The translations under genes were made by a program, and so were the position numbers. A stretch of DNA of 64,000 nucleotides from Escherichia phage vB_EcoP_PhAPEC5. The notes beneath the pieces are model-generated. The model had not been told where the DNA came from. It did no database searches and was given only the letters and a program-made list of their open reading frames with translations. Below are positions 753 to 52,729 of this stretch, one piece after another. Location of the stretch: the sequence record NC_024786.1; one strand, given 5' to 3'. Position 1 is the first letter of the stretch. Each line of letters opens with the position of its first letter.

Positions 753-782
753 GACCTCCCTATTGAAGGGAGGTCTTTTTTT
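753..782 (+). terminator. Rho-independent terminator
   Basis: Stem GACCTCCC / GGGAGGTC with loop TATTGAA followed by a T7 run. Confidence 0.75.
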
Positions 783-807: not shown

Positions 808-996
808 ATGTATAAAGAGATTGCAGTATTCTCGTTCATATTAGGTGGGTTCTTTGGTGCAGGATTTGTAGGTATTTCTAATACCTACTTTGGTTCTACT
901 CCAAATACTGTAACGCAAACCCTCAAGCATGAATGTGAATTGAATATCCCTCGTAATCAAAACTGCGTAATGCAGTTCGTACCGGAGAAGAAATGA
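808..996 (+). CDS. small hydrophobic protein (hypothetical)
   Basis: ATG start with GGAG RBS upstream; Gly/Phe-rich hydrophobic N-terminus. Confidence 0.3.
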   Translation: MYKEIAVFSFILGGFFGAGFVGISNTYFGSTPNTVTQTLKHECELNIPRNQNCVMQFVPEKK

Positions 997-1178: not shown

Positions 1179-1505
1179 ATGAAAACTTTAATTGCTGTTG
1201 CTGTAGTAGCTTTATCAGTTATGTCATTCGGTGCTCAAGCATCTAGTCGTGCAACCTTGCTGGAAGCTGCTGCTGATTACAAAGCTAATAATACAAACTT
1301 TGTGAACCAGGGTTACTTCATGGGCATGGTTACCATGGGGGTGGAAGCAGGAAAGAACTGTGTACCTGACGATATGAAGTTGGGGCACATTTTTGACAGA
1401 GTGGCTTCTATTATTCTGTATGACCGAAAGGTTAATGCAATGAAAGTACCGTCAGACATGGTTCTGTTAGCGATTGATACAGCGTATCCCTGCGTTAAAT
1501 CTTAA
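1179..1505 (+). CDS. secreted/periplasmic protein with N-terminal signal peptide (hypothetical)
   Basis: N-terminus MKTLIAVAVVALSVMSFGAQASS resembles a Sec signal peptide with AxA cleavage site; two Cys in the mature part. Confidence 0.45.
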   Translation: MKTLIAVAVVALSVMSFGAQASSRATLLEAAADYKANNTNFVNQGYFMGMVTMGVEAGKNCVPDDMKLGHIFDRVASIILYDRKVNAMKVPSDMVLLAIDTAYPCVKS

Positions 1506-1539
1506 TTAGTAATTCCATTAACTTTAGGAGAGTAAGTAA

Positions 1540-2592
1540 ATGGCGAGCATTGACTCCTTGACTGTATGTAATACACGCCAAGCCCGTAATTTTATTATCC
1601 GTGCCCTGCAAGCAGGTAACGTACCGTTCCTGACTTCATCACCAGGCATGGGTAAATCTGCAATTATCCGTTCTGTTGCAGAAGAATTTGGCATGAAGCT
1701 GATTGACCATCGTCTGTCTACTTCTGCCCCGGAAGACCTGTCTGGTCTACCATTCCGTAATGGTGACCGTGCAGAATTTATCCCATTCGCTGACTTATTC
1801 CCTATCGAGGGAGATGAAGTACCGGAAGGTTATAATGGCTGGCTCCTGTTCCTTGATGAGTTCAACTCAGCTAAGAAAGAAGTAGTAGCTGCAGCATACA
1901 AACTGATTTTAGACCGCATGACTGGACAGAAGAAACTTCACCCTAATGTGATGATTATCTGTGCCGGTAACAAAGCTACTGACCGTGCCATCGTTAACCC
2001 ACTGGGTACTGCAATGCAGTCCCGTGTTGTCCACTTCGAAATGGAACTTAACTTCGACATCTTTGTTGAAGACGTGATGATTCCACAAGAATGGGATGAG
2101 CGTCTGGTTGCATTCTTACATGCTAACCCTGGCTATCTGCACGACTTCGATCCTGCCCATAAGAACAAAACGTTCTGTTGTCCTCGTACCTGGGACTTTG
2201 TTAACAAAGACCTCAAGAACCAACCAGAAGGTGCTCTGCCTGATGAAGATTCCCTATACTACAGTGGTTTTGTTACACCAGGTAAGGCCGTAGAGTTTGT
2301 TCAGTTCACTCAGGTATACAATCGTATGATTACGATTGAGAAGGTAGTCAAAGACCCTTTAGGCTGTGCACTACCGGAAGATAATAACCTGTGTTGGGCT
2401 ACCGTTAACCATCTGGCTAACAAGACCACTGAAGATAACTTCGCTGATGTTCTTCAGTACATTGAACGCTTTAAAACGTTCACCCATAAGATTCTGTACT
2501 TCCGTACAGTAGGCAAAGCATTACCAGAAATTCAGGCTACCCCCGAATGGCGTAAGGCTGCTGCCAATATCTCTCGTTACATTCACGGGTAA
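1540..2592 (+). CDS. MoxR-like AAA+ ATPase
   Basis: Walker A SSPGMGKSAI, Walker B LLFLDEFNSA, sensor/arginine region; strong AGGAG RBS; immediately followed by a VWA-domain partner. Confidence 0.8.
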   Translation: MASIDSLTVCNTRQARNFIIRALQAGNVPFLTSSPGMGKSAIIRSVAEEFGMKLIDHRLSTSAPEDLSGLPFRNGDRAEFIPFADLFPIEGDEVPEGYNGWLLFLDEFNSAKKEVVAAAYKLILDRMTGQKKLHPNVMIICAGNKATDRAIVNPLGTAMQSRVVHFEMELNFDIFVEDVMIPQEWDERLVAFLHANPGYLHDFDPAHKNKTFCCPRTWDFVNKDLKNQPEGALPDEDSLYYSGFVTPGKAVEFVQFTQVYNRMITIEKVVKDPLGCALPEDNNLCWATVNHLANKTTEDNFADVLQYIERFKTFTHKILYFRTVGKALPEIQATPEWRKAAANISRYIHG

Positions 2593-2599
2593 TCACATC

Positions 2600-3775
2600 A
2601 TGAACCAGATACCTCAGCACACACTTAGCGATGAACAACTCATGCGTGAGTATGACCGTATACAAGCGCAGGCATTTTTAGGCCGCAGTGCAGCGTTTTT
2701 TGGTTCATTGCTGTGTAGTCTTAAGTTCTCATGGAAACGTGAAGACTGTCCCACTGCATGTACTGACGGGATAGAACTCCATTTCAACCCAGACTTCTTT
2801 ATCTGGATGTGCCCTGATGCGAGAGAAACAGTGCTAATGCACGAACTCTGGCATGTGGCATATCTACATGGCATCCGCTGTGGAAGCCGTGACCCGGAAA
2901 TCTGGAACCAGGCATGTGACCACTTCATTAACCTTCAGTTAGAAGAAGACGGTTACAAGTTCACTGGTATCGACAAAGGCATTTGCAAAGACCCTCAATA
3001 TAAAGGATGGGTTGAAGAAGACATCTACGATGACCTGATGAAGAACCCTCAGAAAAGGCAGAAGCCGTCAGGGGGTGCTGGAGCAGGTCTTGCTGGCGAC
3101 ATGAAAGCTCCCTCTTCGGGGCAGTCCCAGGGTGCTGTTGTCAACAACGTAGTACGTGCAATGCAAAGCCAGAAGATGGCTGGTGGAATAATGCCAGGTA
3201 AAGGTGCTGGTCGTATGGAAGAGGTTATTACCCAATTCCTTAAACCAGTGGTTCCATGGCAGGAAGTCCTTATGGACTTCTTCACTGACATTGATGACTC
3301 ACGCTATACGTGGGCCAGACCTAACCGTCGTTTCACTGACATCTATCTACCGTCATTGGAAGATGATGAAGGACGTTTACGACACCTAGCTTACTTTGAG
3401 GATGTATCTGGTTCTATTAGTAGTTCTGACTCTCTGCGTTTTAACTCAGAGGTTGCCTACGTTAAAAGCCAGTTCAATCCTAAGAAGATGACCCTTATTA
3501 CCTTCGACGATATTATCCAAGAAGAAATAGACATCACTGAAGAAGATACCTTTGAAGAGATTAAGATTACTGGTCGTGGTGGTACAAACCTTGAACCAGT
3601 GCGTGAATGGATTATTGAGAATAAGCCAACCGCTGCAATCATATTCTCCGATATGTATGTTCGTCCTATGGAAGAGTTACCATTTGATATCCCTATCATC
3701 TGGTGTGTTCTGAATAATCCTAATGCTACCGTACCTTTTGGGGAGGTAGTTCATATCCCTAAAGGAATGAAATGA
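2600..3775 (+). CDS. VWA-domain protein with N-terminal HExxH metallopeptidase-like domain (partner of the MoxR ATPase)
   Basis: HELWH motif in N-terminal half; MIDAS-type DxSGS motif (FEDVSGSISSSD) in C-terminal half; gene order matches MoxR-VWA pairs. Confidence 0.55.
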   Translation: MNQIPQHTLSDEQLMREYDRIQAQAFLGRSAAFFGSLLCSLKFSWKREDCPTACTDGIELHFNPDFFIWMCPDARETVLMHELWHVAYLHGIRCGSRDPEIWNQACDHFINLQLEEDGYKFTGIDKGICKDPQYKGWVEEDIYDDLMKNPQKRQKPSGGAGAGLAGDMKAPSSGQSQGAVVNNVVRAMQSQKMAGGIMPGKGAGRMEEVITQFLKPVVPWQEVLMDFFTDIDDSRYTWARPNRRFTDIYLPSLEDDEGRLRHLAYFEDVSGSISSSDSLRFNSEVAYVKSQFNPKKMTLITFDDIIQEEIDITEEDTFEEIKITGRGGTNLEPVREWIIENKPTAAIIFSDMYVRPMEELPFDIPIIWCVLNNPNATVPFGEVVHIPKGMK

Positions 3776-4224
3776 TTATTAACCGCAGTCGTTTATTAGA
3801 GCTGGCTCCTATAAAGAACATGGTGGACTCTAAGCAAACCAGTAATGGTTTCTCTTGGGGTCTTACAGAATGCGGATACGATATTCGTATTAAGCAGGAT
3901 GTGACCATGTTCTTGGGGCGACGATTCGTACTAGCGTCAGCCATAGAAGAGTTCGACGTCCCACCAAACCTTATGGGCCGTGTACTTAATAAGAGTACAT
4001 GGGCCAGAAAGGGGATTGATGCAAGCATGACAACCAATATCGAACCGGGGTGGAAAGGTTTCCTTACCCTTGAGCTTCGTTATTCGGGTATTTTGCCTGT
4101 TAAAATAAAAGCTGGTACTGGCATAGCTCAGGTTATCTTCGAAGAGATAGCAGAGCATTGTCGTTATGAAGGTAAGTACCAGTGTCAACCAAACAAACCA
4201 GTAGCTGCTAGACCTTCAAAATAA
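3772..4224 (+). CDS. dCTP deaminase/dUTPase-fold protein (putative)
   Basis: ATGA overlap with upstream gene; motif GFSWGLTECGYDIRI resembles the dUTPase/dCTP-deaminase Gly-rich/DLR region. Confidence 0.45.
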   Translation: MIINRSRLLELAPIKNMVDSKQTSNGFSWGLTECGYDIRIKQDVTMFLGRRFVLASAIEEFDVPPNLMGRVLNKSTWARKGIDASMTTNIEPGWKGFLTLELRYSGILPVKIKAGTGIAQVIFEEIAEHCRYEGKYQCQPNKPVAARPSK

Positions 4225-4254
4225 AAGGCTATCCAGCTTAACCAAGGAAATAAC

Positions 4255-4458
4255 ATGTCAGTATTCACTACTAAAGCAAATGGTCAGAAAGTAACTGTTA
4301 TAGCTGCAAACGTAGCATTCGTAACAGATAATGGTGGTCAAGCATGTATCACTTTTAACAATGGTGATGTACTTCAAACTGAAGTAGGTTACGACTCTGT
4401 TCGTAAGAACGTAGCTAAGGCACTGTCTGGGGCTAAGCCTAAGGCAGAAGCCGAGTAA
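4255..4458 (+). CDS. hypothetical protein
   Basis: ATG with AAGGA RBS; 67-aa ORF. Confidence 0.35.
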   Translation: MSVFTTKANGQKVTVIAANVAFVTDNGGQACITFNNGDVLQTEVGYDSVRKNVAKALSGAKPKAEAE

Positions 4459-4531
4459 GTAGCTGCCTAAATAGCCCAGCATAGTTGGGCTATTTGTGAA
4501 GAAACTAACTCAACCCCACATAGGAACCATC

Positions 4532-4792
4532 ATGGAATCTTTAGCAGCAATCCTCATTCTGTTATTTGCACTAGCTGTATACCTTATCCCTACTATTATT
4601 GCTTTTGCACGAGGCCATGCCTCTAAGTGGGGCATTGGTGTACTCAATATCGTATTAGGCTGGTCTTTAGTCTTCTGGGTAGTAGCACTGATTTGGGCAC
4701 TGTCTAACAAAGGGCAGTCTCAGACTACAATCGTTAACGTTGGTAGTGGGAACCAGTACAACGTGTCTCAAACGAGTCAGTCTGATAAGTAA
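4532..4792 (+). CDS. Imm-like superinfection immunity membrane protein (putative)
   Basis: Two TM segments with motif PTIIAFARGHASKWGIGVLNIVLGWSLVFWVVALIWAL, resembling the T4 Imm family; tracked ORF starts at GTG 4496, ATG 4532 with AGGA RBS preferred. Confidence 0.5.
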   Translation: MESLAAILILLFALAVYLIPTIIAFARGHASKWGIGVLNIVLGWSLVFWVVALIWALSNKGQSQTTIVNVGSGNQYNVSQTSQSDK

Positions 4793-4867
4793 CTAACCTA
4801 AGCATCATTGCATAGTGGTGCTTGTGGAAGTTACTTCCAGCTCATTGCTTATCCATCTCCTAATCCA

Positions 4868-4895
4868 AGCCCACCTAACCCGTGGGCTTTTTTAA
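4868..4895 (+). terminator. Rho-independent terminator
   Basis: Stem AGCCCAC / GTGGGCT, loop CTAACCC, followed by TTTTTTAATT; lies inside the tracked ORF 4808-5296, arguing for the downstream ATG 4910 as true start. Confidence 0.65.
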
Positions 4896-4909
4896 TTACA
4901 GGTACTCTT

Positions 4910-5296
4910 ATGTCAAACAGACAAAATGGTAAGTCTATCTTATATGGACTGGACTTAAGTAAACTGGAACAAACTGCAATGCTTACTTTAGGTAAAACTA
5001 TACATGACCAAGTAGAAGAGAATGGAATTGGTCCTGATGTTTATGCAGCAATGCAAGCTGCTATTCAGAAAGGATGGACTAGTAGATCATTTAATGTTTT
5101 CCCATACATCCCTCCTGAGCCTCATCTGAAATCTAAGGTAGACAGAATTATAGATAAGTTCTGGCTTAGCCCGTGTTATAACGACATGCATCTTTACCTG
5201 GCTCAAATACAAAAGAATACCCGTACTGAGGATGTGTTTAAAGGTAAGAGCACTACCCATCATTACCCTTGGTATAGAAGAGGTAGTAAATACTAA
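4910..5296 (+). CDS. hypothetical protein
   Basis: ATG downstream of terminator; tracked ORF begins with TTG at 4808. Confidence 0.4.
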   Translation: MSNRQNGKSILYGLDLSKLEQTAMLTLGKTIHDQVEENGIGPDVYAAMQAAIQKGWTSRSFNVFPYIPPEPHLKSKVDRIIDKFWLSPCYNDMHLYLAQIQKNTRTEDVFKGKSTTHHYPWYRRGSKY

Positions 5297-6823: not shown

Positions 6824-7060
6824 ATGAAACGTTTAGCTATCCAAGCAATGATTATAAGTATCATCCTGGTTCTGGAGTTTGTATTTGCACTACATGGTGC
6901 ACAGAGCCTGGAAGAGATGTTCTTCGTAGTGGCCCGTTACTCTGCTTGTTCTATTGGCTTATGGTGTGTGTATTACTATACACGCGATTATGTAGCCATT
7001 AAGGAACATGATGATGCTAAGGAACGTCTACGACAATTCGTAGAAGAGAATCGTAAGTAA
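6824..7060 (+). CDS. small membrane protein (hypothetical)
   Basis: ATG start; hydrophobic N-terminal segment IISIILVLEFVFAL then charged tail; ends just before a terminator. Confidence 0.35.
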   Translation: MKRLAIQAMIISIILVLEFVFALHGAQSLEEMFFVVARYSACSIGLWCVYYYTRDYVAIKEHDDAKERLRQFVEENRK

Positions 7061-7065
7061 ACCTA

Positions 7066-7092
7066 AGACCTCCTCCGGGAGGTCTTTTTTTG
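7066..7092 (+). terminator. Rho-independent terminator
   Basis: Stem GACCTCC / GGAGGTC followed by TTTTTTTGA; near-identical stem and tail to the terminator at 753-782. Confidence 0.75.
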
Positions 7093-7877: not shown

Positions 7878-10439
7878 ATGTTAGTTGCAGATACCAATCA
7901 ATCAGCCACTTCAGCGACACTGGGTGGCAAAGAAGCAATCGCCTTTGGCATCTCTGATGACCCGGCATTCTTTCACGTATTAAGTACTTCCTTATATAAC
8001 AACCCCACTCTGGCAGTAGTTCGTGAGACTATCTGTAACAGTTGGGATGCTCATATTGAAGCAGGTAAGACTGATACTCCTATCAGTATTACTATTGATA
8101 CCGACAATTTTATTACCTTCCGTGACTATGGTAACGGTATCCCGGATGAACTAATTGGTTCCATCTATGGTGTCTATGGTGCATCTACTAAGAAGTCCAA
8201 CAGTAGTGTTACTGGTGGCTTTGGTCTGGGATGTAAATCCCCATTCGCTTATACAGATAGCTTCCAGGTTACTTCATGGAACCAAGGGAAGATGTCTGTA
8301 TATAACGTAGCTAAGGCTGCAATTGAGAATGATGGTAAACCGAGTATTGTTCCTATCGTTACTGGTATTCCTACTGAGGAATCTGGACTGGAAGTTAAAT
8401 TCCAGCTAGGCAAGCATGATGTAAATACCTTTGTGCATTACATCACATCAATTGTATTTAACGGTGAGATTAAGGCTGAGCTTAGTATTCCCAAACTTGT
8501 TCGTGAAGAAACAGGTAATAGTATTCAGCAGGGTGACTACACTCTGCTGAATACCCTAGGCATGTCATTTGAACCTGGTTCATATGATATGACTGGTAGT
8601 TGGTATCAAGGCTATATGGGTAACAGTAACATCTTTGTTCGCTACGGTAACGTAATGTACCCAATAGTATCTAGTCCAGCTAGTGAAGAGGCTGTAGGTC
8701 TTATTCTTAACTTCATGAATATCATTGGAGCTGATAATTTAGTAGTTCAGGCTGCACCGGATACCTTAGCGATTGCCCCTAGCCGTGAAACACTGTCTAA
8801 CCAGAAGTTAACTGACGATGGTATTACTGCTCTATGTGTAGATTTAGTAGACCGTATGGAGAAAGAGATTAAGGCTAAGATTCCCGAAGCTATTAAGCAG
8901 ATTGAAAAGTATGCCTCCGAATCCTCTGCTGGGTACTGGGAATATCCGTCTTTCTTGGGTGTTGTTACGGACAGAATTGTTCAACGCTATATGTCCTCTA
9001 GCTTGTGGGCTAAGCAACGTAAACATCATATTAAGCACTGGCGTAATCTATCCAATAAGGCATTATTAGCTCGTCCTGAATATGCAGGTCTTAAGAAACT
9101 GTATAGTAAGGCTATGCGTGCTCTTAAGCATACTCGTACAGACGGTACTTCCTTATTCCAGGATTTAGTATACCGTCATCTGCATTTACCTCAGCTTGTT
9201 GCTTTAAAAGCCACTGGTGTTAAGTGGTCTGGTTACATAATGAACCAGGGTAACAGTGTTGGCCTGGTAAAAGGTAAACTTACTGACTACTTTAAGATGG
9301 GCTATAACAACCATTTGGGTATCGGTATATTCACTACCAAGAATGTTGTAGTTACCCGACGTTTATCTGACTGTGCAGACTCTTTCTCATACTTCCCTGA
9401 GTACAACCGAGGTGACCTGGAGCGTACTGCTTTTGTTCACGTCGTTGGTCCTAAAAAGGGCGAAGCAGAAGAAGCTGTAGCTAAGTTCACTGCTATGGGT
9501 TATCGGGTAATTGACCTTACTCAATATAATGAGTGGGACAAGCCAACTAACTTCCGCAGGGAACAGGCTAAGATAGCTGCTGAGAAACGTGCTAGTACAA
9601 TAGCTGCCAATAAAACCAAAGCAGGAGGTAAAACTAATGCATTAGTTTCATTGAATGCAGTACTAGGTACTACCCCTGTACGGGATAAAAGTGGTGATTG
9701 GGTATCTAAGCCGTATATCCAGAAGGAATTTGCTGACCCGAGCTACCATGAGAAATCTGGTTTCGTTGAAGTAGAATTGCCCAAGTACTACGTGCTAGCC
9801 AATCAGGTTGGTTCTGGTAGACCGGAAACTGCCAAGATTGGAACCATGTGGAAATGGTATGAACTGTCCGATGAGATGAAAGCAGAGACTGTTGTCTGTC
9901 GTAATCAAATCGAAGTTAACAAGGCCAAACGCCGTGGTGCTATTCACATTGACGATATTCGTCTTAATGAATTGATGTCTGTTATTACCAGCAAGGGATT
10001 CAAGAAGTATGTCAGTGAACAGCGTATTGGTGTTCTGGAATACGTAGGACTGGATGACAGGAAATATTGGGAAATTCTCGATATTCTGGGTCTAACCTTC
10101 AAACCATTACAGAGTCTGGTTCTTAAACCAGAGTACGAATGGGCATGTGACTTCCTAAGAAACCATCCACGTAACAAAGAGAGACTTGTTGAGATGGGCC
10201 TCATTAAGTCAGTAGATGACTTGGAACCATATGTAAGGATGGTTAATCCTCGTATGCACAAGCATTACGAAGTACTTACCAGGTACAAAGAGTTATTCTG
10301 TTATAGCTGGAGTGCTGGTGACATCTTACAAAACCTAGACTTGGGTAATTTAGTCAAGTATCTCAAGAAAAATCCAGAGGATATTCCTGGGTTTAAGTCC
10401 CTCTACCGTAATCGCCTAAATAAACTGAAAGGTAAATAA
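7878..10439 (+). CDS. rIIA: rIIA-like protein with N-terminal GHKL (HATPase_c) ATPase domain
   Basis: GHKL-like boxes ETICNSWDA, RDYGNGIP, TGGFGLG in the N-terminus; 853 aa; immediately followed by a rIIB-sized partner. Confidence 0.65.
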   Translation: MLVADTNQSATSATLGGKEAIAFGISDDPAFFHVLSTSLYNNPTLAVVRETICNSWDAHIEAGKTDTPISITIDTDNFITFRDYGNGIPDELIGSIYGVYGASTKKSNSSVTGGFGLGCKSPFAYTDSFQVTSWNQGKMSVYNVAKAAIENDGKPSIVPIVTGIPTEESGLEVKFQLGKHDVNTFVHYITSIVFNGEIKAELSIPKLVREETGNSIQQGDYTLLNTLGMSFEPGSYDMTGSWYQGYMGNSNIFVRYGNVMYPIVSSPASEEAVGLILNFMNIIGADNLVVQAAPDTLAIAPSRETLSNQKLTDDGITALCVDLVDRMEKEIKAKIPEAIKQIEKYASESSAGYWEYPSFLGVVTDRIVQRYMSSSLWAKQRKHHIKHWRNLSNKALLARPEYAGLKKLYSKAMRALKHTRTDGTSLFQDLVYRHLHLPQLVALKATGVKWSGYIMNQGNSVGLVKGKLTDYFKMGYNNHLGIGIFTTKNVVVTRRLSDCADSFSYFPEYNRGDLERTAFVHVVGPKKGEAEEAVAKFTAMGYRVIDLTQYNEWDKPTNFRREQAKIAAEKRASTIAANKTKAGGKTNALVSLNAVLGTTPVRDKSGDWVSKPYIQKEFADPSYHEKSGFVEVELPKYYVLANQVGSGRPETAKIGTMWKWYELSDEMKAETVVCRNQIEVNKAKRRGAIHIDDIRLNELMSVITSKGFKKYVSEQRIGVLEYVGLDDRKYWEILDILGLTFKPLQSLVLKPEYEWACDFLRNHPRNKERLVEMGLIKSVDDLEPYVRMVNPRMHKHYEVLTRYKELFCYSWSAGDILQNLDLGNLVKYLKKNPEDIPGFKSLYRNRLNKLKGK

Positions 10440-51612: not shown

Positions 51613-52134
51613 CTATTCAAAAAGTTTACGGTCAGCCTGAATTTGTTTACCCAACTCAATTAGTTGGTTGTCACGGAGTCTAACAGTTGCCCGGAGTTCT
51701 TCAACCAAACGTCTGCCTTCTTCAAGACTGTTGTCGAGTCTGGCTGCATGGCTTGCAAGACTTCTGCACTCAAGGGTTCCGGCTTCGGCTTGACGTTGAT
51801 ATACCGATGCTCGTCTTTCAGACTGTTGCATCCGGCTGTCGTAATCACTGCTAACGCGAGCAAGCTCGCTTGCGTAATTACTCTCAGCCGTCTGCAACCG
51901 GGAAGTGAGTAACCCGACTTCATAACTATGGTTTCTTTGGAGAGCATTGTATTTGTCCTGTAGTTTTTGTGTTGCCTTCAGGTCTTCAACCTTTTGGGCA
52001 TCCCACTTCTTTTGAACAGTAGACTGTCCATTAGAATTGCCCCAAAAGTAAATGGTGGCCCCAAGGACCACCACCAGAAGATAAGGCCAACCTTTAGAGA
52101 TTAGCATCTTCATTACATGCCTCCAGTGGTACAT
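51613..52134 (-). CDS. Rz-like i-spanin
   Basis: N-terminal TM segment ([16 protein letters not shown]) followed by coiled-coil-rich periplasmic domain; adjacent to endolysin; contains embedded lipoprotein ORF. Confidence 0.6.
51660..51923 (-). CDS. Rz1-like o-spanin (lipoprotein, embedded in Rz in an alternative frame)
   Basis: Signal peptide with lipobox-like TAGC ([14 protein letters not shown]), Pro-rich short mature part; entirely inside the Rz ORF. Confidence 0.55.
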   Translation of the reverse strand: MKSGYSLPGCRRLRVITQASLLALAVITTAGCNSLKDEHRYINVKPKPEPLSAEVLQAMQPDSTTVLKKADVWLKNSGQLLDSVTTN

Positions 52135-52729
52135 TACCGATTCGGTTAGCTACCCAACCATACGTAAAGTCTGGCATGTTCAATGAGGTGTAGTGGTTCA
52201 GTTGTTTAGCATCAAGTAACTTAATCATTACCTGACATGCTGCAACTTTGCCTCGTTTTTTCTGTAATGCTTTATATGCATTAACAGTACCTGCACCGAC
52301 TTTACCATCAACTTGTACTTTAGGGTAGTCTTTGCCATTACGGGACATTTCATTAAGAGATTGCTGCAACCACTTAGCTGGTCTAGTTACACCGGTATTA
52401 ACCCCAGCATCAACCAGTTTGTGTGTTACAGCAGGAGATATATCAGCGAAGGCTACGAAGTTAGGTTTAAGTACGTAGTCATCAATGTATATCTCAGCAG
52501 CCATCTCTTTAGATAAACCCCTCATGGAACCATCCCAACCATACTCAGTAGCCAGAACTTCTTTATGAGACTTAGCTACTGATTGGGTAATACCATGATT
52601 AGTTTCCCCACCTGGGTCACGAGGATTGTTTACGTACCCTCCTTCCATATAGAACACTGCCCCCAGAATAGCAGCGACAACTCCTCCCACTGCACCACCT
52701 TTTGCAGCAAGTTTCTGTTTAGCTTTCAT
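52094..52729 (-). CDS. endolysin, GH108-type N-acetylmuramidase with SAR-like N-terminus
   Basis: Motif EGGYVNNPRDPGGETNHGIT typical of glycoside hydrolase family 108; Gly/Ala-rich weakly hydrophobic N-terminal segment. Confidence 0.75.
   Translation of the reverse strand: MKAKQKLAAKGGAVGGVVAAILGAVFYMEGGYVNNPRDPGGETNHGITQSVAKSHKEVLATEYGWDGSMRGLSKEMAAEIYIDDYVLKPNFVAFADISPAVTHKLVDAGVNTGVTRPAKWLQQSLNEMSRNGKDYPKVQVDGKVGAGTVNAYKALQKKRGKVAACQVMIKLLDAKQLNHYTSLNMPDFTYGWVANRIGNVPLEACNEDANL

Follow-up and report, generated by a model that had tools for sequence, protein, structure and literature searches.

The closest described systems to the first of the two phage genes considered here are Rap1a of Serratia marcescens (3ZFI, 4BI8), Tai4 of Agrobacterium tumefaciens (6IJE, 6IJF) and the Pfam family PF18602, whose proteins are periplasmic inhibitors of peptidoglycan DL-endopeptidases delivered by type VI secretion systems (T6SS). 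Rap1a has a 26-residue signal sequence, forms a dimer that sterically blocks Ssp1 and contains a disulfide, Cys78–Cys122, that joins the α2–α3 loop and the C-terminus; Rap2a, EcTai4 and StTai4 represent the other, distinct Tai4 fold (PMC3852654). For the second gene the reference is phage T4, in which Imm works alongside Spackle, a periplasmic protein of 75 aa that forms a disulfide-containing helical bundle and inhibits the gp5 lysozyme (PMC7677548). We analysed 64,000 nucleotides of Escherichia phage vB_EcoP_PhAPEC5 (NC_024786.1), hereafter the window, in which an earlier note made from the sequence alone had proposed two open reading frames (ORFs) as superinfection-exclusion genes. Both ORF1 (1179–1505, plus strand) and ORF2 (4532–4792, plus strand) were found at these coordinates, and we are confident that they encode a Rap1a-type protein and a member of the Imm family, respectively.

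ORF1 encodes a 108-aa precursor of a predicted Sec-exported, Rap1a-type (Tai4-like) periplasmic protein and is preceded by an AAAGG Shine-Dalgarno sequence 7 nt upstream. The N-terminus, MKTLIAVAVVALSVMSFGAQA followed by SS, was judged by the rules for n-, h- and c-regions and combines an n-region containing a single Lys, a core whose 19-residue Kyte-Doolittle mean of 1.92 marks it as hydrophobic, and an A-Q-A motif. The predicted signal peptide comprises residues 1–21 (1179–1241, plus strand), with the inferred cleavage site between AQA and SS, and an AXA-type site occurs in all alleles. No Cys lies near the cleavage site (no lipobox), and the protein is therefore not a lipoprotein. It contains exactly two Cys residues, C61 and C105, 44 residues apart and both invariant in 17 homologs, so that the Sec-type signal peptide and the two Cys described in the earlier note are indeed present. 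Cys61 (codon 1359–1361, plus strand) lies in the loop after the second mature helix, is invariant in alignments A1 and A2 and falls opposite the first of the Cys residues when aligned to A. tumefaciens Tai4. Its presumed disulfide partner, Cys105 (codon 1491–1493, plus strand), is part of a C-terminal YPC motif, in which P104-C105 is invariant and aligns with the FPC of Tai4 6ijf.

The family assignment was derived from profile and structure comparisons. Pfam Rap1a (PF18602) scores the window allele at 18.9 bits (E-value 0.002; cutoff 27.7), and a word-indexed homolog search with ORF1 retrieved Gamaleyavirus relatives only, at identities of at least 58%. Profile A1, built from 17 ORF1 homologs and searched exhaustively against 1.84 billion representatives, returned only 11 clusters, and every full-length one shows a Rap1a match; the most distant, P0115 and P0116, which the phage profile reached at an E-value of ~3e-4, are true members of the Rap1a family with 55.8 and 53 bits. 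The allele of Shigella phage Moonfish, 50% identical and located at the same position, reaches 29.6 bits and thus exceeds the Pfam cutoff. The AlphaFold model of ORF1 (predicted local distance difference test score, pLDDT, 84.9; predicted template modelling score, pTM, 0.74) is all-helical and has the five-helix fold of Rap1a, and the top seven chains in a Foldseek comparison of this model with the PDB are all Tai4/Rap1a (probability 0.69–1.0). Neither the ORF1 sequence searched directly nor profile A1 matched any PDB entry; the broader profile A2 found Tai4 6ijf and 6ije as its sole and weak hits (E-value 0.21), with both Cys aligned. The spacing of 44 residues between the two Cys equals that of Cys78 and Cys122 in Rap1a, and they occupy the same structural places (PMC3852654). 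The fold of Rap2a, EcTai4 and StTai4 was absent among the Foldseek/PDB hits.

By predicted fold and by family, ORF1 is a divergent Rap1a-type Tai4 homolog. It shares with the bacterial proteins a predicted cleavable signal sequence and a conserved Cys pair, presumably forming a disulfide, and differs from them in its surroundings: it stands neither beside a Tae4/Ssp1 effector nor in a T6SS locus, and its neighbours are small phage ORFs and a gp24-like ATPase. The proposal of an envelope exclusion factor holds in part, in that the protein would act in the envelope and is probably protective; its family is that of Rap1a/Tai4 T6SS immunity proteins and no known exclusion family. A role in exclusion is possible only by analogy to Spackle, which likewise inhibits a wall hydrolase in the periplasm. 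Public databases already assign the products of both ORF1 and ORF2 to families. UniProt and BFVD name the ortholog of phage SP5M (95% identical) 'Rap1a immunity protein domain-containing', UniProt uses the same name for the Bp4 ortholog, and a few GenBank records call ORF1 relatives 'Tai4' or 'Rap1a'. In the literature, we found no paper discussing the ORF1 gene, including one on the UE phages that does not mention it, and no functional study under phage Tai4/Rap1a, Gamaleyavirus superinfection or Imm_superinfect. Nor did we find a published discussion of why virulent phages keep such a gene.

Comparison of related genomes shows that ORF1 is considerably more variable than its neighbours. In the phage collection it occurs in only 55 Gamaleyavirus-like records, which fall into identity classes of at least 80% and below 60%. 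Between the window and phage EC1-UPM, the ORF1 products are 37% identical, the flanking genes 89–96%, and the DNA across ORF1 does not align at all; we interpret this pattern as allelic replacement within a conserved backbone. Within the close class, nonsynonymous divergence (dN) is 0.056–0.086 for ORF1 versus 0.002–0.029 for gp24/gp25. The ratio of nonsynonymous to synonymous divergence (dN/dS) is 0.12–0.34 for ORF1 versus 0.02–0.08 for gp24/gp25. Divergence and raised dN/dS together look like the signature of an arms race. ORF1 is not the sole replaced cassette: the dCTP deaminase gene (3772–4224, plus strand) encodes a protein 51% identical to that of PhAPEC7 and 95% identical to that of EC1-UPM, and the product of the small orf4255 (4255–4458, plus strand) is 35–36% identical to both, at 96–99% identity for gp24 and gp25. 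The block that includes 3772–4458 is, on these comparisons, a mosaic hot spot.

The nearest clusters from the profile search point to a long phage history of ORF1. Contigs were looked up for clusters P0107, P0110 and P0112–P0115 (P0108, P0109, P0111 and P0116 were left out). Clusters P0107, P0110, P0112, P0113 and P0114 all lie in N4-like phage contigs, either 5′ of a gp24-like ATPase, as in the window, or just after another AAA ATPase; P0115, a bona fide Rap1a, has a bacterial-looking context. Given these N4-like contexts of the nearest clusters, ORF1 is therefore likely to be an old resident of the Schitoviridae and not a recent capture from a host. In a distant N4-like lineage (L014, 3573–4654; L015, 651–1723), the Rap1a-like gene starts on the last base of the preceding AAA ATPase gene (249–250 aa), and this one-base overlap suggests translational coupling.

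ORF2 encodes a predicted inner-membrane protein of 86 aa. It matches Pfam PF14373 (Imm_superinfect) with 60.9 bits (E-value 1.1e-16; cutoff 27.9) over profile positions 1–42 of 42, and PHROG 1039, 'immunity to superinfection', with an E-value of 2.3e-34. T4 Imm, taken from NC_000866 for comparison, scores 58.2 bits on the same Pfam profile, and BLASTP aligns it to ORF2 with 31% identity over 68 aa (E-value 7e-10). When ORF2 relatives are aligned with T4 Imm, P20, A24, R27, I35, W44, I54 and W55 are invariant. The resemblance to the Imm family suggested earlier is fully borne out by these searches, and the sequence pattern quoted in support of it is present. Two hydrophobic segments also agree with the earlier note; in the hydropathy profile they span residues 1–28 and 33–59, a pattern shared by T4 Imm. 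The helices were called from Kyte-Doolittle hydropathy and the topology is inferred: helix 1 (residues about 3–25; 4538–4606; maximum of the 19-residue window 2.79) is followed by a short basic loop, ARGHASK (4607–4627), which is predicted to be cytoplasmic by the positive-inside rule and whose R27 is invariant down to T4 Imm, and by helix 2 (residues about 33–58; 4628–4705), also supported by the alignment, which contains the motif GW...W..ALIW. A polar, Q/S/T/N-rich C-terminal tail (4706–4789; all plus strand) varies between alleles. This division is visible at both levels of comparison, with a conserved transmembrane hairpin and differing tails in the protein alignment A3, and a nucleotide alignment to PhAPEC7, PBM-2 and EC1-UPM that ends after about 186–199 nt.

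The start of ORF2 was assigned to ATG 4532 and an alternative GTG at 4496 was rejected. An AGGA sequence precedes the ATG by 7 nt, database homologs are 86 aa long when counted from this codon, and Met1 of T4 Imm aligns there; the GTG has no Shine-Dalgarno sequence and lies within a hairpin. A perfect 10-bp inverted repeat, AAATAGCCCA-GCATAGT-TGGGCTATTT (4467–4494, plus strand), lies between orf4255 and ORF2 and overlaps the spurious GTG start. With no T-run behind it, the repeat escaped the terminator scan; possible roles are those of an attenuator, a promoter element or a site of RNA processing.

The profile and alignment evidence makes ORF2 a member of the T4 Imm family. The two proteins have similar lengths (86 aa for ORF2, 83 aa for T4 Imm), both are predicted to form two transmembrane helices with a short basic loop, and each covers all 42 positions of the profile, with almost the same score and with P, A, R, I and W positions in common. 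They differ in the phages that carry them, T4 being a contractile-tail myovirus and the ORF2 phage a podovirus of the N4 type, ejecting a giant RNA polymerase via a gp51/gp52 channel, and in the variable Q/S/T/N-rich tail of ORF2. A homolog is present in 703 phage records, among them those of T-even-like, Jersey-like and Acinetobacter phages, and Gamaleyavirus records already name the gene 'superinfection immunity protein' or 'membrane immunity protein'. As a further gene of the Imm family, and one that GenBank labels accordingly, ORF2 brings no novelty.

Each ORF retains its position across more than 50 genomes and has a dN/dS below 1 (0.12–0.34 in four comparisons for ORF1; 0.15 against phage Bas96 for ORF2); on these data we regard them as genes under purifying selection and not as chance frames. 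NCBIfam and PADLOC gave no match for either. A stretch of 3 kb that holds genes for replication and nucleotide metabolism separates the two ORFs. Phages Moonfish, L014 and L016 carry an ORF1 homolog and no Imm/ORF2 homolog in the 10–16 kb retrieved around it, and an obligate pairing of the two genes was rejected on this ground. We regard them instead as two independent accessory envelope genes of a Gamaleyavirus, probably co-transcribed with replication genes between two terminators.

Taken as a whole, the explanation that we find slightly better than even is that ORF2 provides Imm-like exclusion and that ORF1 blocks a periplasm-acting endopeptidase, likely a foreign one, either a T6SS effector or an enzyme of an incoming phage. 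For ORF2, exclusion is the function best supported by homology and a probable one, argued from T4 only. The protein would form a two-helix hairpin in the inner membrane and, as T4 Imm does, block the genome or the ejection complex of a later-arriving phage at the cytoplasmic membrane. For ORF1, inhibition of a peptidoglycan endopeptidase is similarly probable from its family. The protein would be exported by Sec, lose its signal peptide, fold into the five-helix, disulfide-stapled Rap1a fold and bind a periplasm-acting NlpC/P60-type peptidoglycan DL-endopeptidase, whose active site would be sterically blocked. The phage itself offers no visible partner. Its endolysin, encoded at 52094–52729 on the minus strand, is a muramidase of family GH108 that also carries a PG_binding_3 domain, and a Pfam scan of the endolysin and nine virion proteins found no NlpC/P60, CHAP or Tae4 domain, a scan that remote homologs in unannotated virion proteins or the 3577-aa virion RNA polymerase could escape. 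The N4 ejection proteins are reported to be without peptidoglycan hydrolase activity (PMC13434306). Since no cognate enzyme is visible in the phage, the target of ORF1 is likely foreign. Our first, tentative choice, which we hold at somewhat less than even, is a T6SS effector, namely a Tae4/Ssp1-class amidase injected by neighbouring (entero)bacteria; it is ranked first, by a small margin over a wall hydrolase of an incoming phage, because those Rap1a-type proteins that have been characterised act by neutralising cysteine amidases of the Tae4/Ssp1 class (PMC3852654). With the amidase blocked, the infected cell would not be lysed ahead of the burst. ORF1 would then resemble the orphan T6SS immunity genes of bacteria (PMC12247911, PMC10539506), being an immunity-type gene without an effector that evolves fast and is exchanged as alleles; the bacterial genes are chromosomal or on mobile elements, whereas ORF1 resides on a strictly lytic phage and would be expressed only during infection.

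Several points weigh against this explanation. The window allele of ORF1 itself stays under the Pfam Rap1a cutoff. No effector partner that would indicate its specificity adjoins the gene; any gain from T6SS immunity during so short a lytic cycle is hypothetical; and long residence in the N4-like lineage may speak for a phage-specific target and not for a T6SS effector. We found no functional measurement of either gene in N4-like phages in the literature, and PF14373 is a widespread family of which, to our knowledge, T4 Imm is the sole member tested.

Other targets of ORF1 have to be weighed against a T6SS amidase. ORF1 might be a Spackle-like exclusion factor directed at a virion-borne peptidoglycan endopeptidase of superinfecting phages and, together with ORF2, reproduce the two-layer exclusion by Sp and Imm of T4. 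T4 uses exactly such a pairing (PMC7677548), both genes occur in most Gamaleyavirus records, and the allelic hypervariability of ORF1 fits a conflict between phages. The likeness also extends to the protein: Spackle is a small periplasmic helical protein with a disulfide from a virulent phage, of the hydrolase-inhibitor class and with an Imm protein alongside (PMC7677548), and ORF1 is small, periplasmic and helical by prediction, has a probable disulfide and belongs to a family of wall-hydrolase inhibitors. The resemblance does not amount to homology, however, since hhalign gave a probability of 11.5% over 10 columns, and ORF1 as a Spackle homolog was rejected; Spackle inhibits a lysozyme and the Rap1a family cysteine DL-endopeptidases, its characterised members blocking Tae4/Ssp1-class amidases (PMC3852654) and none having a described action on lysozyme. 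Self-exclusion would moreover be without a visible target, as the scanned virion proteins contain no NlpC/P60-type enzyme and the N4 ejection proteins are reported to be inactive as peptidoglycan hydrolases (PMC13434306), and in Moonfish, L014 and L016 the sequence retrieved around the ORF1 homolog contains no Imm gene. We therefore consider this alternative unlikely. Less likely still, and in our estimate distinctly improbable, is an action of ORF1 on a host enzyme or on the phage's own lysis programme, for example on the E. coli NlpC/P60 enzyme MepS, by which wall growth would be frozen or lysis delayed. Host enzymes of the MepS type share the NlpC/P60 fold with Tae4, and the conserved position beside replication genes in diverse N4-like phages suggests a role in every infection; yet there is no evidence of such cross-inhibition by any Rap1a or Tai4 protein, extreme allelic divergence is unexpected for a conserved host target, and the phage endolysin, a GH108 muramidase, is an implausible ligand. 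The specificity of Rap1a/Tai4 proteins is, in addition, described as narrow and dependent on fold and sequence (PMC3852654).

A comparable question arises for ORF2, which could be a small membrane protein outside exclusion, acting in lysis timing or membrane energetics and sharing only the PF14373 hairpin with T4 Imm. The family signature is a 42-residue hydrophobic hairpin that occurs in 703 very different phages and also in many bacteria, and proteins of quite different function can share a short hydrophobic profile. Against this stand a score on par with that of T4 Imm itself, the retention of polar and aromatic positions (R27, W44, W55, P20) beyond mere hydrophobicity, a length and architecture that are the same as in T4 Imm, and the phage's own holin and spanins elsewhere in the genome; we judge a non-exclusion function of ORF2 to be improbable, and Imm-like exclusion remains the preferred interpretation. 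The shortness of both ORFs could suggest that at least one of them is a chance frame or was called as a gene in error; this has a negligible probability, being already refuted by the conservation and selection data: more than 50 genomes keep the ORFs in place, dN/dS stays under 1, Shine-Dalgarno sites are present, the profile matches are confident and so is the predicted fold of ORF1.

The window belongs to a Gamaleyavirus, an N4-like phage of the Schitoviridae, with DNA ~93–95% identical to PhAPEC7, KKP 3715 and Bas96. A 4.7-kb stretch around both ORFs matched 59 phage records, the best with 93–95% identity over 85–94% of the query, and all 59 are Gamaleyavirus or related N4-like podoviruses (Schitoviridae, Enquatrovirinae) that infect Escherichia, Shigella and Klebsiella. 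Gene order is identical in the annotated relatives PBM-2, PhAPEC7, PGN829.1, Bas96 and EC1-UPM. A terminator-like hairpin (753–775, plus strand) closes the decoration protein gene (31–702) and marks the start of the unit with both ORFs, and a second one (4867–4889, plus strand), 3′ of ORF2, marks its end; the same sites are annotated as terminators in PhAPEC7. Between them lie a small ORF (orf808; 808–996, plus strand), a second small ORF (993–1178), ORF1, the gp24-like AAA ATPase (1540–2592, plus strand), the gp25-like metallopeptidase/VWA protein (2600–3775, plus strand), the dCTP deaminase, orf4255 and ORF2; gp28/gp29 homologs and ThyX follow beyond the second terminator. The earlier note had placed both ORFs in the early region, which did not hold up: synteny with N4 (gp24, gp25, dCTP deaminase and gp28–30 homologs, with notes in the PhAPEC7 record) assigns the block to the middle, replication genes.

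Further features of this region were recorded. The orf808 product (62 aa; PHROG 7508, function not assigned) has one N-terminal hydrophobic helix (residues 4–24) and two Cys in its tail, and is a further candidate small envelope protein of the transcription unit of ORF1 and ORF2, absent from the earlier note. In PGN829.1, an extra gene annotated 'superinfection exclusion protein' (L003, 1175–1453) lies between the gene for the decoration protein and the homolog of orf808, a site at which the window has an intergenic gap of only ~100 bp. The ATPase encoded within 1540–3775 (plus strand) is MoxR-like, and the gp25-like protein that follows combines a VWA-like domain with a putative metallopeptidase domain (DUF2201_N); the label 'HNH endonuclease', given to it by PHROGs and in several GenBank records, is not supported by Pfam. 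A TTG-start ORF (4808–5296, plus strand) reads through the terminator at 4867–4889, and its PHROG match begins at residue 35, so that ATG 4910 is probably the real start. ORF 6824–7060 (plus strand) encodes 78 aa, starting with a hydrophobic segment and ending in a highly charged C-terminus, has no family match and is followed by a bidirectional terminator-like hairpin (7065–7086). An 853-aa rIIA-like protein with a GHKL ATPase domain (HATPase_c_3) is encoded at 7878–10439 (plus strand), and a rIIB homolog is next in the relatives; N4-like phages therefore carry T4-type rII genes besides an Imm homolog.

The point that merits experiment is why lytic N4-like phages keep and diversify an orphan Rap1a-type inhibitor. 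It is possible, although we hold it doubtful, that strictly lytic N4-like Schitoviridae have long carried their own secreted, fast-diversifying Rap1a-type immunity protein that shields the infected cell from T6SS amidases; the phage would then guard its 'virocell' against interbacterial warfare and let the infection finish. Because ORF1 combines a conserved position in N4-like phages, a phage-only subclade of nearest relatives, no cognate phage enzyme and alleles replaced in near-identical genomes, it is a cheap and clear test case, either for phage interference with contact-dependent bacterial antagonism or for T6SS-type immunity folds in phage–phage exclusion. Gamaleyaviruses are used against avian pathogenic (APEC) and uropathogenic (UPEC) E. 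coli strains, so that phage therapy in the gut could be affected by a gene that changes how well infected cells survive in mixed communities.

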